Shown: piece after piece, positions 2,781 to 23,659 of the stretch | How the letters are laid out: every line of letters begins with the position of its first letter | How positions within the stretch are numbered: the stretch's first letter is position 1 | Assembly (NCBI GenBank): GCA_030583765.1 | Contig: CP129474.1 | Location: forward strand, 471,168 to 519,347 | Origin: Minisyncoccota bacterium | GTDB taxonomy: Bacteria > Patescibacteriota > Minisyncoccia > 2-02-FULL-40-12 > GWA2-44-9 | Length of the DNA: 48,180 nucleotides | Direction of reading: 5' to 3' | Notes under the pieces: model-generated | Databases searched by the model: none | Seen by the model: only the letters and a program-made list of their open reading frames with translations | What the model was told of the DNA's origin: nothing | Position numbers and translations under genes: made by a program

Positions 2781-4270
<1,490 letters not shown>

Positions 4271-5392: not shown

Positions 5393-5421
5393 TTGACGCC
5401 GCTGTCGTATGGGCGTACCAT
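5393..5421 (+). promoter_or_regulatory. Candidate promoter of paralog cassette 1
   Basis: TTGACG, a 17-nt spacer, then TACCAT. The same arrangement recurs at 5916-5944. Confidence 0.55.
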
Positions 5422-5450
5422 CCCGCCAGTCCTTTTAAGGAGCAATAGAC

Positions 5451-5864
5451 ATGGCGAAGGCATGGTTGGTCCAGTTTACGTTCGAAGAAGAAAGCTTCGA
5501 CCAGTGCAAGGGTCGACGTACGCACATCGAAATGATGACCGGGCTGGAGATCGAACTTCTCGACGGTTCCCGCGTGATCTTAGCAGGTCGCGCTCAGGAT
5601 GTGGGCCAGCCCGGATACATGTTCCTGATGCGCGGGGATGAGATCGAAGCTCTCGAAGATCCTAACCTTCGCCCAAAGGTGGAGCGTATCCTCGCTGGGA
5701 AGTGCGAAGTACTGTGGAAGTGTCGCGATTTCTCAGACGATGCAGCTATCTGTTTGGCCGCTCGCATGAGGGACAGGCGACGCTTTCTTGACTCCAAGCT
5801 TACTGCGCTTCGAGTCTTGGACGAGGAGCGGGAGGAATATCTTCGCGGCGACGTACCGTTCTAG
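5451..5864 (+). CDS. Hypothetical protein, paralog 1 of a tandem pair (137 aa)
   Basis: SD sequence aaggag, then ATG. The protein MAKAWLVQFTFEEESFDQCKG... aligns along its length with ORF 5974-6411. Confidence 0.7.
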   Translation: MAKAWLVQFTFEEESFDQCKGRRTHIEMMTGLEIELLDGSRVILAGRAQDVGQPGYMFLMRGDEIEALEDPNLRPKVERILAGKCEVLWKCRDFSDDAAICLAARMRDRRRFLDSKLTALRVLDEEREEYLRGDVPF

Positions 5865-5878
5865 CGCTCTGTGCAAAA

Positions 5879-5908
5879 GGGCACCCCACCGAGGTGCCCT
5901 TTTTCTTT
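5879..5908 (+). terminator. Rho-independent terminator of cassette 1
   Basis: gggcacc-ccaccga-ggtgccc followed by tttttcttt. It is identical to the hairpin at 6427-6447. Confidence 0.75.
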
Positions 5909-5915
5909 AGGGATC

Positions 5916-5944
5916 TTGACGCCCTCGCACCAGAGGCGTACCAT
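5916..5944 (+). promoter_or_regulatory. Candidate promoter of paralog cassette 2
   Basis: TTGACG, a 17-nt spacer, then TACCAT. A 48-nt leader follows that is identical to the leader upstream of 5451. Confidence 0.55.
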
Positions 5945-5973
5945 CCCGCCAGTCCTTTTAAGGAGCAATAGAC

Positions 5974-6411
5974 ATGGCGAAGACGAGGTTGGTTCGGTTC
6001 GAGTACGAAGCTAGTAGCTACGACCCGTGCAAGGGCACCACCAGGTACATGCAGAAGGTGCTTGCCCTTGAGATCGATCTCCCCAATAACCATCGTTTGG
6101 TTTTCGCGGGGTATGATCAGGATCTTAGCAGTCTCGGCTACCTGTTCTTGATGTGTGAAGAAGGTCTTGCTGCAGTTGAATGTCCCGCACTAAGAATTGA
6201 TATCCATCGCATGCTCGCTGGAACGCGCACGGTTCTTCAGGAGGGTCCCGAGTTTTCTGATGATGCTGCACAGCGCATCGTCGCTCGCATGGAGGGCGAG
6301 ATGGCGTTCCACAATGCAAAGGAGGGCGGAATCTTCGCCCTTCAAAGTGAGCGCGAGCGATATTCGGAGCGCTTGCGTTCCGAGCGCACCAAGGACAGCC
6401 TGCGCCTCTAG
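5974..6411 (+). CDS. Hypothetical protein, paralog 2 of a tandem pair (145 aa)
   Basis: MAKTRLVRFEYEASSYDPCKG... shares CKG, GY.FLM, LAG and FSDDAA blocks with ORF 5451-5864. Confidence 0.7.
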   Translation: MAKTRLVRFEYEASSYDPCKGTTRYMQKVLALEIDLPNNHRLVFAGYDQDLSSLGYLFLMCEEGLAAVECPALRIDIHRMLAGTRTVLQEGPEFSDDAAQRIVARMEGEMAFHNAKEGGIFALQSERERYSERLRSERTKDSLRL

Positions 6412-6426
6412 CCGGTCTCGCAAAAA

Positions 6427-6457
6427 GGGCACCCCACCGAGGTGCCCTTTTTCTTTT
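6427..6457. terminator. Terminator of cassette 2, probably bidirectional with the convergent SIMPL gene
   Basis: gggcacc-ccaccga-ggtgccc is flanked by an A-run upstream and a T-run downstream. Confidence 0.7.
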
Positions 6458-16494: not shown

Positions 16495-16529
16495 GGGCGA
16501 TTAGTTCAGTGGTAGAACGCTGTCCTGAT
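16495..16529 (+). pseudogene. Extra copy of the tRNA-Ile(GAU) 5' half (acceptor to anticodon, 35 nt)
   Basis: GGGCGATTAGTTCAGTGGTAGAACGCTGTCCTGAT is identical to positions 1-36 of the complete gene at 16583. It diverges right after the anticodon. Confidence 0.85.
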
Positions 16530-16582
16530 CAAAGGCACTTTGTCACTGGTTCGTTCGGCTGTCATACAACCTTCTGTTTCGG

Positions 16583-16654
16583 GGGCGATTAGTTCAGTGG
16601 TAGAACGCTGTCCTGATAAGACAGAGGTCCTAGGTCCGATTCCTAGATCGCCCA
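16583..16654 (+). tRNA. tRNA-Ile (anticodon GAU), complete
   Basis: Manual cloverleaf: GGGCGAT/ATCGCCC acceptor, GTTC/GAAC D stem, CTGTC-CTGATAA-GACAG anticodon arm, CTAGG-TCCGATT-CCTAG T arm, discriminator A, no encoded CCA. Confidence 0.9.
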
Positions 16655-16684
16655 CATTCAGGTTGTATGCAGTCTCACTGCCAG

Positions 16685-16725
16685 TGATAAGACAGAGGTC
16701 CTAGGTCCGATTCCTAGATCGCCCA
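16685..16725 (+). pseudogene. Extra copy of the tRNA-Ile(GAU) 3' half (anticodon loop to 3' end, 41 nt)
   Basis: TGATAAGACAGAGGTCCTAGGTCCGATTCCTAGATCGCCCA is identical to the 3' part of the complete gene. It shares TGAT with the 5'-half copy. Confidence 0.85.
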
Positions 16726-16730
16726 CACGT

Positions 16731-20598: not shown

Positions 20599-20721
20599 AA
20601 TAAAAAGTGGCTACCCTCAGCATGGCTGTGGATAACCACATTTTTCGACCGCCTGCGGCGGAACTCAAGGATCAAGAAACCAACAGATCCAAGGGTTCAA
20701 GACCGCAAGGGTCGATTACTG

Positions 20722-21618
20722 CTACACGAAGCCCGAGACGGAACCGTAGTAGCCGTGCGCATAGTCGAACCAGTACGTGCCGAACTTGGCCTCGCCGTCG
20801 CTGAAGTAGAAGACCGGCGCGTGCGAGAAGCGGCCATCGCCGTCGGGATCGTCGAACTCGTCACCCGAGCAGTCCATGTCCAGCTCCTCCCAGCGAACGA
20901 GTCGCTCGGGGTGAACCAGCACGATGGAACCGACCGCGAGGCTGGTCAGACCGAACTCGTTCTGCACAAAGACCTCGCGCGCCCGGCGAACCGAACGACC
21001 GCGATGCCGAAGCCCCAGCTGTGCTGCGATGATCAGGATGTCGCCCGGCTGCTTCTCCGCGACGAGATCGAGCGCATGCGCCGTGCGAGCCGAAACTCGC
21101 AACTGCGCCGGCGTGATCTGGCCGTCACGGTAGTTGTAGAACGAACGCGACTCCCCGATCTTCGTGTGCACGAGCTGAACGGCCCGGCAGTACTTGTCGG
21201 CGGGATCGGTCACCTCCGGGAAGTACTTCACGGCGATGGCGTCCACCGAGGGAACCGCGAACCATCCTTCGGCTCCTTCGGGGAGCGCGGGCAGGTTCTT
21301 GGCGTACTCGAGCGCCTGGGTCGGATCGAGACCGAAGATCGTGGCGACTGCCTTGATCTGGTCGACGATCGGCTTCGGGCCCTTGTACTCCTTCGGGTAC
21401 GTGTAGCTGGAACGGACTTCCTCGTCGGCGTACCGATCGGACTGGGACAGCTCGGCGATGAGCTTGGCAATCCCGTCCTGCAGTTCGCCGCCGCGCTCGT
21501 TGAGCCGCTGTGCGCGGGAGTCATCGAGCTTGGACTTGTTGTACGCGGCCTCGAAGAGACCGGTTGCGTGGAGACCTTTCGGGTCTCTGCTGGTGATCAA
21601 TGTCTGTGACATCGTCAT
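20722..21618 (-). CDS. DGR target (variable) protein, no signal peptide, VR at the C-terminus
   Basis: 298-aa GC-rich ORF (about 60-65% GC in sampled lines). The last 42 codons are the VR. The SD AGGAGG abuts the first ATG, so the real start is probably M3 at 21612. Confidence 0.85.
   Translation of the reverse strand: MTMSQTLITSRDPKGLHATGLFEAAYNKSKLDDSRAQRLNERGGELQDGIAKLIAELSQSDRYADEEVRSSYTYPKEYKGPKPIVDQIKAVATIFGLDPTQALEYAKNLPALPEGAEGWFAVPSVDAIAVKYFPEVTDPADKYCRAVQLVHTKIGESRSFYNYRDGQITPAQLRVSARTAHALDLVAEKQPGDILIIAAQLGLRHRGRSVRRAREVFVQNEFGLTSLAVGSIVLVHPERLVRWEELDMDCSGDEFDDPDGDGRFSHAPVFYFSDGEAKFGTYWFDYAHGYYGSVSGFV
20724..20849 (-). repeat. DGR variable repeat (VR), 126 nt
   Basis: The reverse complement aligns with TR 22080-22205. 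There are 12 mismatches, all at TR adenines. It ends at the T of the target stop codon. Confidence 0.9.
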
Positions 21619-22079
21619 CCTCCTTCTTCGTTGAATTACCCGAACCGCTCGGGCGAGCGTCTTGCCTCAACATGAGACGAGCACGATAGGTACAAGAGGT
21701 CTTTTACCCATTGTGCTCGGCTCAAATAAGGCCTTTTCAAAGAACTAACTTTGACGCTTAAGTATAGCAAAAATAAGCGGTTTTGTCAAGAATGGAACCT
21801 GTCCCCTTCTATGCTGTATAATATGCTTGAGCTTAGGCTAATGTACAGCCGTCCACGGATTGCTGTCGCCGAACTCTATCATTTCAACGATAACAACCAG
21901 AGTCCCGGAGACTACGGTTTCCGCGAGCGTGTTGTGTTGAGGAGATACTGCTTGCTTTCGCCTAGTGCAGGTTCCTTACCGGATGCTGCCGAATTAAATT
22001 CAGGACTGAGAGAATATAGGTCTGTTTCCAACAGGCAGTAAATCTCAAGGTTCGGTGCCACGGATGGGTGGAAGCAATT

Positions 22080-22205
22080 ATCCCGACGACGATGACCGCT
22101 TCTCGCACGCGCCGATCTTCAACTTCAACGACGGCAAGGCCAAGTTCGACACGAACTGGTTCGACAATGCGAACGACAACTACGGTTCCGTCTCGGGCTT
22201 CGTGT
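22080..22205 (+). repeat. DGR template repeat (TR), 126 nt
   Basis: It has adenines at all 12 positions that differ from VR, is rich in AAC/GAC codons, and is not part of a credible gene. Confidence 0.9.
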
Positions 22206-22223
22206 CGAAGTCTCTCCAAGACA

Positions 22224-22252
22224 GAAAGGGTATCCATTTTGGATACCCTTTC
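22224..22252. terminator. 13-bp hairpin between TR and the avd 3' end (terminator-like on the + strand)
   Basis: gaaagggtatcca-ttt-tggataccctttc is followed on the + strand by T-rich gtttattcggctttgatt. It lies 19 nt after the TR and 3 nt from the avd stop. Confidence 0.6.
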
Positions 22253-22254
22253 GT

Positions 22255-22605
22255 TTATTCGGCTTTGATTGAGCGTATCCACCCGCCCAACATTCGGCCT
22301 ATCTCATCTATTGGTGCTTCAAGCGCAATGTACTTCTTATTGTCTATGGTTTTCACATCCTTCATGAGTCGGATAAACATGCGAAGCATATTGAGTTTGA
22401 GGCTGGCACGTTCAAGTGTTGGGAGTTTTTTCTCCCGGTGCTCTCCGCTCGCCTGCATGATTGCTTCCAACACATCGAGTATCGCGCACTCGCATCGTTC
22501 GAAGACCGTGAAGCGATCTTGTTTGGGTACGAGTTTCCGGTACTGATTGAAGGTTTTGTACAAGTCGTAAGACTTTTTGAAGATTGGTATATCGAATTCG
22601 TTCAT
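22255..22605 (-). CDS. avd: DGR accessory variability determinant (Avd-like four-helix-bundle protein)
   Basis: 116 aa. IPIFKKSYDLYKTFNQYRKLVPKQDRFTVFERCECAILDVLEAIMQA matches the S23-IVS/four-helix-bundle pattern of Avd proteins. Confidence 0.8.
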   Translation of the reverse strand: MNEFDIPIFKKSYDLYKTFNQYRKLVPKQDRFTVFERCECAILDVLEAIMQASGEHREKKLPTLERASLKLNMLRMFIRLMKDVKTIDNKKYIALEAPIDEIGRMLGGWIRSIKAE

Positions 22606-22609
22606 AGTT

Positions 22610-23659
22610 ATGAAGGTTTATAAGAATCTATTTCAACAAATCGTCTCGCTAGAAAACCTATTCACGGCATGGGAAGAATTTCGAGCTGATAAGCGGCACA
22701 AAGAAGATGTCCAGGAGCTTGAATTTAATGTGGAGCAAAATCTTTTTGCGCTTTATCGAGAGCTGGTCTCGAAAAAGTACACTCACAAGCCGTATTTTGG
22801 CTTCTATATTCGTGACCCTAAGGTGCGACATATCCATAAGGCCACGGCCCGGGATCGGGTTTTGCATCATGCGGTGTTCCGCATTTTGAACCCGCTTTTC
22901 GACAGGACTTTTATCCCCACTTCCTTTTCTTGTCGGGTTGGTAAGGGATCGCATAAAGGAGTTATGGCATTGGAACAAATGATTAGGGCTGAGAGCAGGA
23001 ATTTCACTCGGCCGTGTTTTGTCCTGAAGTGCGACGTGCAAAAGTTTTTTGATTCGATTGATCACCAAACCCTTCTGGCCATTCTTCGTAAAAAAATAGC
23101 CGACATGGACACCATGTGGCTGATGGAAAGAATTATTGAAAGCTTTTCGACCGGACGGACTACCTTGTTCGACCGCCAAGGTGTGCCGATTGGCAATCTC
23201 ACCTCCCAGCTCTTCGCCAACGTGTACATGAATGAGTTTGATCAGTTCGTCAAACAACAATTGCGAATCAAACACTATGCCCGCTACACGGATGATTTCG
23301 TGATCGTCTCCACCGATAAAAAAGAGCTGACGAATTTGCTTGATCCTATACAGCAATTTCTCGGTGGCTGTCTGAAGCTGAAACTCCACCCCAAGAAAAT
23401 ATCTATTCGCCCCTGTCATCAAGGCATCGATTTTCTTGGTTATGTGGCCTTGCCTTACCATCGGCTGATGCGCCCCAAAACAAGGCGTCGAGTATTCCGC
23501 AAATTGAGAATACGGATTTCCCAATACCGGGCCGGAGCGATCAGCGAGGACGCTCTTTCCCAGTCTCTGCAATCTTATTTGGGTGTGCTCTCTCATGCGA
23601 ATACTCATCAACTGAGCGAGAACCTAAAGAACCAGTTTTGGTTTTGGCTGCATATGTAA
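22610..23659 (+). CDS. DGR reverse transcriptase
   Basis: FDSIDH (motif 3), PIGNLTSQLFANVYMNEFD (the DGR-diagnostic SQ motif) and YTDDFVIV (YxDD). An alternative TTG start lies at 22577. Confidence 0.9.
   Translation: MKVYKNLFQQIVSLENLFTAWEEFRADKRHKEDVQELEFNVEQNLFALYRELVSKKYTHKPYFGFYIRDPKVRHIHKATARDRVLHHAVFRILNPLFDRTFIPTSFSCRVGKGSHKGVMALEQMIRAESRNFTRPCFVLKCDVQKFFDSIDHQTLLAILRKKIADMDTMWLMERIIESFSTGRTTLFDRQGVPIGNLTSQLFANVYMNEFDQFVKQQLRIKHYARYTDDFVIVSTDKKELTNLLDPIQQFLGGCLKLKLHPKKISIRPCHQGIDFLGYVALPYHRLMRPKTRRRVFRKLRIRISQYRAGAISEDALSQSLQSYLGVLSHANTHQLSENLKNQFWFWLHM

Follow-up and report, generated by a model that had tools for sequence, protein, structure and literature searches.

In the diversity-generating retroelement (DGR) of the Bordetella phage BPP-1 the elements are ordered mtd/VR - avd - TR - spacer - brt, with TR and VR denoting the template and the variable repeat and brt encoding the reverse transcriptase (RT). 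Synthesis of complementary DNA (cDNA) in this phage requires about 140 nt of RNA downstream of TR. This spacer comprises an Avd-binding stem-loop (Sp5-32), a primer strand (Sp53-56, with priming at A56) and a stop-duplex strand (Sp59-70) which pairs with a segment just upstream of TR, followed by a small stem-loop, by adenosines, by the "thumb ring", which is single-stranded, and by a long stem bound by the RT (Handa et al., bioRxiv 10.1101/2023.10.23.563531). For bacteria of the candidate phyla radiation (CPR) the order TR-(avd)-RT was named Architecture B3 and made up 90% of the CPR set, being almost lacking in the core set, according to Wu et al. (2018, Nucleic Acids Res 46:11, PMC5758913). 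The MyDGR paper (PMC6602519) describes opposite-strand TR/VR pairs as rare but real. Finally, Rfam holds candidate structured RNAs found beside bacterial RT genes, among them RT-7 (RF03028) and RT-10, the latter being the Bordetella phage spacer, as given by Weinberg et al. (2017, PMC5737381). Here, a DGR of a Minisyncoccota bacterium is compared with these systems. It is located in a stretch of 48,180 nt (assembly GCA_030583765.1, contig CP129474.1, positions 471,168 to 519,347 of the forward strand), which is called the window throughout and whose first letter is position 1. With a probability of roughly 70% we read the locus as an intact CPR-type B3 DGR with a flipped target gene, in which the TR RNA carries an upstream domain that would act as a permuted spacer, with priming in cis and homing in trans.

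The core of the locus consists of the following features.

20718-20849, minus strand: VR, the 3' end of the target gene (inverted repeat with TR; adenine-specific substitutions)
20722-21618, minus strand: DGR target gene, an open reading frame (ORF) of 298 aa whose last ~42 codons are VR
22080-22211, plus strand: TR (inverted-repeat and substitution analysis)
22255-22605, minus strand: avd, 116 aa, divergent from the RT gene (Pfam bAvd PF22296, 5e-16)
22610-23659, plus strand: DGR reverse transcriptase, 349 aa (RVT_1, 1.5e-22; best solved-structure match Bordetella phage bRT 8ub7, 2e-49, residues 2-345), with IGNLTSQ as [LIV]GxxxSQ motif and YTDD as YxDD catalytic box

A single long inverted repeat was found in the window, formed by 20718-20849 and 22080-22211 (132 nt, 89% complementary). 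When TR was read on the plus strand, 13 of the 14 TR/VR mismatches were replacements of a TR adenine (TR-A to VR-N), and in the variable coding part (22089-22178) all 12 mismatches fell on TR adenines. As TR contains 31 A in 132 nt, the chance of 12 out of 12 is about 0.235^12, roughly 3e-8. At 22206 TR has C and VR has A, turning TCG into the stop codon TAG (VR 20722-20724 versus TR 22205-22207), and owing to this stop the target protein of the window (…SGFV) is two residues shorter than the TR reading and the homologues (…SGFVSQ). The 3' end of the repeat is formed by the GC-rich invariant stretch CGTCTCGGGCTTCGTG, followed by CGAAGT in TR and CGCAGT in VR (A versus C at 22208). Since this last difference is fixed in all close relatives, it most probably represents a distinction of the IMH/IMH* type (IMH, initiation of mutagenic homing) and not a sign of mutagenesis. 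Thus, DGR-clade RT motifs, an adenine-specific TR/VR pair and a VR ending a protein-coding target gene were found together with the IMH/IMH*-type difference and an inverted repeat 3' of VR, the latter two at the sequence level and with predicted function. The locus is a real and intact DGR, with RT, Avd, TR, VR and the inverted repeats downstream of VR all present. Activity of the DGR in this lineage is suggested by close target homologues (91% identity) which differ almost only in VR.

In order to place the layout of the locus, 80 loci with relatives of the RT (47-75% identity), nearly all from Patescibacteria/CPR genomes, were compared and labelled L001-L080. A homologue of avd was found directly upstream of the RT gene and on the opposite strand in 79 of them, with the start codons of both genes -2 to +16 nt apart in the nearer relatives. 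An adenine-specific TR/VR pair with TR on the RT strand beside avd was observed in the window and 57 related loci, 58 cases in all; TR of the near clade ended 33-70 nt before the avd stop codon. The window itself carries TR and RT on one strand, a reversed avd between them and no other accessory gene, i.e. Architecture B3. With the B3 DGRs of Wu et al. (2018) it shares the core order and strands, a Patescibacteria/CPR host and a target without recognisable domain; it differs in that the target gene, and hence VR, is reversed as well. VR was located opposite to the TR strand in 10 of the 58 cases (window, L001, L003-L006, L008, L026, L030 and L061). In a neighbour-joining tree of the RTs the window, L001, L003-L006 and L008 formed one clade, and L026/L030 and L061 were found elsewhere. 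The target module was flipped at least three times, with the flip inherited in the RT clade of the window, and the flipped target was retained while the RT diverged to about 63% identity. A preliminary description of this DNA had placed TR and RT on the plus strand and target/VR and avd on the minus strand. All its coordinates and strands were correct. It had, however, presented the layout as novel and non-canonical, which was not borne out, given the published B3 architecture, the 79 of 80 loci and the description of opposite-strand TR/VR pairs. The window adds a new instance to a known architecture, its target orientation being rare but known as well. In the more distant locus L067, TR (one of the repeat pair 4068-4180 / 5924-6036) was found on the avd strand downstream of avd, unlike B3, and VR on the same strand as its TR, downstream of RT.

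The antisense position of avd, which fills the gap between TR and RT, was confirmed, with a distance of 398-404 nt from TR to the RT ATG. A spacer function was sought in three places, namely in the gap between TR and avd, antisense to avd, and upstream of TR. The RNA features around TR are listed here.

21817-21822, plus strand: putative -10 box of the TR RNA, TATAAT (TATAAT/TATACT-like box conserved in related loci; transcription start predicted)
21829-22079, plus strand: conserved structured RNA domain directly 5' of TR, ~250 nt (RNAalifold, pairing tests, nhmmer profile)
21846-54 / 21857-65, plus strand: P1 (covariation structure)
21907-12 / 21917-22, plus strand: P3, with conserved flanks CCAGAGU and AGCGUG
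21935-21949, plus strand: UGUUGAGGAGAUACU, 5' strand of the long-range helix and proposed analogue of the primer strand (cognate duplex energies)
21950-21952, plus strand: linker GCU between the UGUUGAGGAGAUACU strand and P4
21953-63 / 22066-76, plus strand: P4, 11 bp, its 3' strand ending 3 nt before TR
21967-74 / 21982-89, plus strand: P5 stem-loop
about 21990-22002, plus strand: near-invariant A-rich stretch CGAAUUAAAUUCA
22003-11 / 22045-53, plus strand: P6, with an inner hairpin also co-varying by eye
22206-22223, plus strand: TR-specific 3' flank CGAAGUCUCUCCAAGACA, conserved in 25 loci and absent from VR
22209-22223, plus strand: 3' strand of the long-range helix (pairing and covariation)
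22224-22252, both strands: hairpin whose 13-bp stem is perfect, flanked by A/T-rich sequence, in the gap from TR to the avd stop codon (terminator scan)

The region of ~250 nt upstream of TR was found conserved whatever the orientation of the target gene, and it was preceded by the TATAAT-like box. RNAalifold predicted 36 base pairs from 47 loci, 31 of them with compensatory changes. In the consensus structure 96.6% of the cells were paired, compared to 71% after shuffling and 35-49% after sliding by 1-3 columns, and 441 cells were changed on both sides, compared to 145 and 52-79, respectively. An nhmmer profile of the domain gave exactly one match in each of 60 loci, and likewise one in the window (21828-22092). 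These matches were always located on the RT strand and always ended at TR, including 14 loci from outside the set used for building the profile, and with 223 bits the window scored as good as any relative. A scan of 21600-22700 against Rfam yielded nothing at threshold and only a weak partial match to RT-7: the hairpin 21896-21938 with its flanks CCAGAGU...AGCGUG matched the 5' hairpin of RT-7 (E = 0.003), covering model positions 1-43 and the last 6 only and reaching 23.6 bits versus a gathering threshold of 116.8, far too low for membership in this family. No match to RT-7 at threshold was obtained among 21 related loci, nor any match to RT-10 in the window. No earlier description of such an RNA upstream of TR was found in Rfam or in the literature searched, which did not include Paul et al. 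(2017). An AAC-rich, TR-like sequence at 21830-21940 was considered as a second TR and rejected; it has no VR partner in the window and belongs to the structured RNA.

Clear pairing was also observed between the domain and the TR 3' flank. In the window, 21935-21949 and 22209-22223 form a helix of 12 bp (ACU:AGU, GGAGA:UCUCC, UGUU:GACA). Duplex energies of cognate and non-cognate partners were used for its evaluation in place of a column-wise covariation scan. For 45 loci the cognate duplexes of strand and flank had a mean of -13.0 kcal/mol versus -10.2 kcal/mol for the non-cognate ones, the cognate partner reached a median rank of 4-5 of 45, and none of 5000 permutations reached the cognate mean. 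Among all 18-nt segments of the domain, 21931-21955 alone showed both a strong duplex and an advantage of the cognate partner (-2.4 and -1.5 kcal/mol), the other segments all remaining within ±1. Individual loci showed the exchanges directly. L008 (AGGGAUGCU:AGCCUCCCU) differs from the window (GGAGAUACU:AGUCUCUCC) by three double changes, and between L023 (GGAUGGAG:CUCCAUCC) and L028 (GGAUAGAG:CUCUAUCC) GGAG:CUCC is replaced by AGAG:CUCU in a compensatory manner. The outer part of the helix co-varies, too (UGUUG:CAACA, GUGUGA:UCAC, AAAGA:UUUUU). The long-range helix and P4 are adjacent on one continuous strand, with TR looped out between these two adjacent helices. As a structure, the upstream domain with its TR-flank pairing is well supported by the comparison of the loci, and its function is predicted.

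At the position of the hairpin between TR and avd a perfect hairpin of 8-17 bp was present in all 47 loci examined, with a different sequence in each locus and with flanks rich in A on the 5' side and in T on the 3' side. The hairpin at 22224-22252 resembles an intrinsic terminator acting in both directions, on the converging transcripts of TR and avd; it also takes exactly the place that the Avd-binding stem-loop has in the phage. Antisense to avd, no RNA-level constraint was detected in a codon alignment of 66 avd genes, the last 30 codons included. Synonymous codon identity was saturated throughout, with 0.25-0.33 at four-fold and about 0.5 at two-fold sites, and a hidden RNA element antisense to avd was rejected as regards sequence conservation. 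Pairing of the TR 3' flank with the sequence following the hairpin was likewise discarded, as it was modest among close relatives and lacking in the set as a whole (-8.8 versus -7.6 kcal/mol). The interval between TR and RT consists of antisense avd and the hairpin, and a Bordetella-type spacer was not found there, with no match to RT-10. Because the hairpin separates TR from avd and avd shows no synonymous constraint, a TR-RT cotranscript is probably not needed.

The window and BPP-1 have several features in common. Their RTs are homologous (8ub7, 2e-49), both have a protein of the bAvd family, the TR/VR differences are adenine-specific, and VR closes the target gene at its 3' end, with inverted repeats following downstream. 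A stem-loop comes immediately 3' of TR, and two adjacent helices join both ends of TR. In contrast to the phage, avd is reversed and found in the position of the phage spacer, and the strand bridging TR lies upstream instead of downstream of TR, for which a circular permutation is proposed. Moreover, the duplex with the TR 3' flank comprises 12-16 bp here, compared to about 7 bp and additional non-standard pairs in the phage, and the bridging strand of the window is preceded by a further 105 nt or so of conserved RNA (P1-P3). The order of elements is common to the window domain and the phage spacer: a primer or primer-like strand, a short linker (3 nt in the window), a stop-duplex or stop-duplex-like strand, a stem-loop, adenosines, a single strand and a long stem. 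What differs is their connectivity, which is upstream segment, TR, Avd stem-loop and spacer in the phage and spacer-like domain, upstream segment, TR, flank and hairpin in the window. The Bordetella-type principle of one strand pairing with the TR 3' end and, directly beside this, with the segment just upstream of TR was found along with the stem-loop (21967-21989) and the conserved CGAAUUAAAU, priming being predicted. By analogy, the RNA of CPR B3-type DGRs in general may be a circular permutation of the Bordetella phage RNA, with the spacer elements upstream, linked to the TR 3' end by the co-varying long-range helix, and only an Avd-binding-like hairpin, acting as two-way terminator too, downstream, a generalisation to which we give even odds. 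The msr-msd RNA of retrons has its priming nucleotide 5' of the template, and long-range pairing of the flanks carries this nucleotide to the template 3' end. The window resembles this RNA in topology alone; a branching G is not apparent in the window, its RT is of the DGR clade and its product would serve homing.

The following mechanism is proposed. TR would be transcribed from its own promoter (-10 box 21817-21822) as a non-coding RNA of ~430 nt (about 21829-22255) which would end at the hairpin, and the upstream domain would do the job of the phage spacer in circularly permuted form. The long-range helix and P4 would tie both ends of TR into one junction, in which the 3' end of the strand 21935-21949 would face TR and have the right polarity for priming into TR. 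Synthesis of cDNA by RT-Avd would be primed in cis near 21949-21952, and copying would start at about 22208 and run into TR. The adenine-mutagenised cDNA would replace VR, with homing in trans through homology; as homing would act in this way, the strand orientation of the target gene would be irrelevant. Both avd and RT would be expressed from back-to-back promoters inside each other's first codons and give rise to leaderless or nearly leaderless mRNAs. A permuted RNA upstream of TR would explain why avd occupies the TR-RT gap, and it would make a TR-RT cotranscript unnecessary.

The region between the two divergent genes is organised as follows.

22588-22622, both strands: back-to-back start region (sequence and cross-locus conservation; promoter function predicted)
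22605-22603, minus strand: ATG of avd
22610-22612, plus strand: ATG of RT, forming with the avd ATG the junction CAT-agtt-ATG with a gap of 4 nt

The RT homologues have a length of 349 aa, which supports the ATG at 22610 as probable start rather than the upstream TTG at 22577. The preliminary description had set the start codons 4 nt apart inside the palindrome TTCATA-gt-TATGAA. Spacing and palindrome are indeed present; the palindrome, however, turned out to be largely a by-product, because avd and RT both begin with ATGAA, and it was rejected as an element of its own, as the relatives do not keep it as a palindrome. Upstream of the RT ATG the relatives keep GGTATATC (window 22586-22593), which contains the -10-like box TATATC (22588-22593, plus strand) inside avd. 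Upstream of the avd ATG they keep TTATAAA, with the -10-like box TATAAA (22622-22617, minus strand) inside the RT gene. These conserved boxes lend support, at the sequence level, to the earlier suggestion that the expression signals of each gene lie inside the coding sequence of the other. It has to be kept in mind that both boxes also code for conserved residues of the opposite protein, for which reason their conservation alone is no proof of promoter function. Neither the avd ATG nor the RT ATG is preceded by a Shine-Dalgarno sequence, and very short or absent mRNA leaders are what the junction points to.

Several observations weigh against a permuted spacer upstream of TR. The start, the 3' end and the termination at the hairpin of the TR RNA were all deduced from consensus-like signals, and the -35 region of its promoter is poor. 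The permutation model, the primer nucleotide included, is drawn by analogy from one solved system. In some loci the long-range helix contains an internal mismatch of 1-2 nt, its register differs by 2 nt between subgroups, and the column-wise covariation scan of the upstream domain versus the flank found nothing, the flank alignment being out of register between subgroups. The domain profile missed truncated loci at contig ends and the most distant clade (L067-L080), of which the latter counts here. Finally, Handa et al., taking 40 nt upstream plus 100 nt downstream of TR, report Bordetella-like elements for CPR DGRs (bioRxiv 10.1101/2023.10.23.563531), because of which a downstream element antisense to avd may still exist. 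Such putative downstream elements would suit a TR-RT cotranscript running antisense through avd, in which the antisense stretch would provide the spacer and priming function or regulate avd, as the preliminary description had it. Further arguments for this cotranscript are that RT needs a promoter and the TR RNA would be the sole long upstream transcript on its strand, that the Bordetella phage spacer lies between TR and the RT gene, and that the U-tract following the hairpin on the plus strand is moderate, making some read-through plausible. We nevertheless did not favour it and consider it unlikely. In 47 of 47 loci examined TR is followed by a strong hairpin whose flanks are terminator-like, the synonymous sites of avd are unconstrained, with no extra conservation in the last ~30 codons, TR has its own conserved -10 box and RT a conserved -10-like box inside avd, and the structured RNA pairing with the TR 3' flank sits upstream of TR.

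A decaying or inactive DGR, the layout of which would be without functional meaning, could be deduced from the low number of 12 TR/VR differences at variable positions and from the non-adenine change at 22206, which leads to a VR stop two codons early. We rate this as very unlikely in view of a full-length RT with intact catalytic motifs, an intact avd, the exclusive location of the variable-part mismatches on TR adenines, an RNA domain scoring equal to that of any relative, and close target homologues with differences almost only in VR. Alternatively, 21829-22079 might stand outside the DGR RNA, as a separate small RNA, a regulatory leader or part of a 96-aa ORF (21751-22041), since this ORF overlaps the domain and the weak partial Rfam match is to RT-7, a motif of unknown function. 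Here, covariation keeps base pairs and not codons, the indels are not multiples of three, the ORF has no Pfam match, and the domain abuts TR on the RT strand once per locus and pairs with the TR 3' flank in a co-varying manner, which leaves such a separate element highly improbable. The metagenome-type source of the sequence and the base composition of the target gene, very different from that of its neighbours, could be taken for signs of an assembly artefact or of a private local inversion of this contig. However, the synteny comparison with related CPR DGR loci, which the preliminary description had called for, showed the arrangement to be conserved, with the same order and strands in the independently assembled metagenome-assembled genomes of all the flipped loci named above. 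The VRs of these genomes carry adenine-specific differences of their own, and a high GC content is found with this target gene family in each locus, irrespective of its orientation. As the flip recurs and is kept across diverged RT relatives, mis-assembly is excluded, and the probability left for an artefact or private inversion is practically nil.

Around the target gene two further features were recorded.

20649-20690, minus strand: inverted repeats 3' of VR, GGATC...GATCC (20690-20669) and the GC-rich hairpin CCGCC-GCA-GGCGG (20661-20649)
21761-21789, minus strand: promoter-like site facing the target gene, TTGACA-17-TATACT with TG (11/12; a consensus match only)

The target family comprises 2206 homologues, and its top 120 clusters were 71-91% identical with variation limited to VR. 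The N-terminal ~255 aa are highly conserved across CPR, more than the RT, and only the C-terminal ~40 aa vary. The target protein had no Pfam match and no PDB sequence match, and its AlphaFold2 model, with a mean predicted local distance difference test score (pLDDT) of 51, was too poor for a fold search. Some records of the Joint Genome Institute (JGI) label the target homologues P0150, P0159 and P0181 as "ribosomal protein S16", which is without Pfam support in the protein of the window. The GC content of the target gene is 0.63 and that of its third codon positions (GC3) 0.83, compared to a GC3 of 0.49-0.57 in avd, RT and four flanking genes. This gap was observed in nearly all related loci, mostly 0.55-0.65 in the target versus 0.29-0.54 in the RT gene (L048, 0.60 versus 0.29), and represents a bias at the nucleotide level which is peculiar to the DGR target family. 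The stems downstream of VR co-vary (GGATC/GATCC, GAATC/GATTC, GAGGA/TCCTC) and occur at the same place in loci of both orientations. Together with the GC-rich hairpin they look as expected for DGR targets. At 20669-20717 (minus strand) an array of five or six CTTGA/CTTGG motifs with a spacing of ~8 nt overlaps the inverted repeat. It is conserved downstream of VR in loci of both orientations and could be a recognition element for homing. In the flipped loci the promoter-like site of the target gene (21789-21761, minus strand) and the -10 box of the TR RNA are arranged back to back. The Rfam LOOT RNA (RF03000) was found above threshold near the DGR targets of L003 (1477-1596, minus strand) and L023 (2912-3029, minus strand), with 72.6 and 77.2 bits, respectively. 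The match in L003 is located ~200 nt downstream of VR on the same strand; the window contained no LOOT match.

Apart from the DGR, a tRNA gene (16583-16654) was found flanked by exact copies of its own halves (window 16495-16727). Here, 16495-16529 equals 16583-16617 (35 nt) and 16685-16727 equals 16614-16656 (43 nt). These copies could be an integration trace or a partial duplication. At 5412-6456 a sequence is duplicated in tandem, the period being about 523-548 nt; 5412-5512 is 84% identical to 5935-6035, and a terminator-like hairpin of 34 nt recurs unchanged at 5875-5908 and 6423-6456. A complete 16S rRNA gene is located at 2784-4267. As no 23S rRNA match was obtained in the following 44 kb, the rRNA genes appear unlinked.

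The gene layout itself, being the published norm for CPR DGRs, changes nothing in the understanding of these elements. How DGRs reverse-transcribe their template is worked out for one phage only, in which the process requires spacer RNA located downstream of TR. A large part of the known DGRs belongs to CPR bacteria, and no CPR DGR is known to have been reconstituted. The predicted RNA of ~430 nt (about 21829-22255) with its co-varying helix offers a concrete construct for testing permuted cis-priming. Moreover, the profile of the upstream domain marks TR and its strand directly and could improve the annotation of DGRs.

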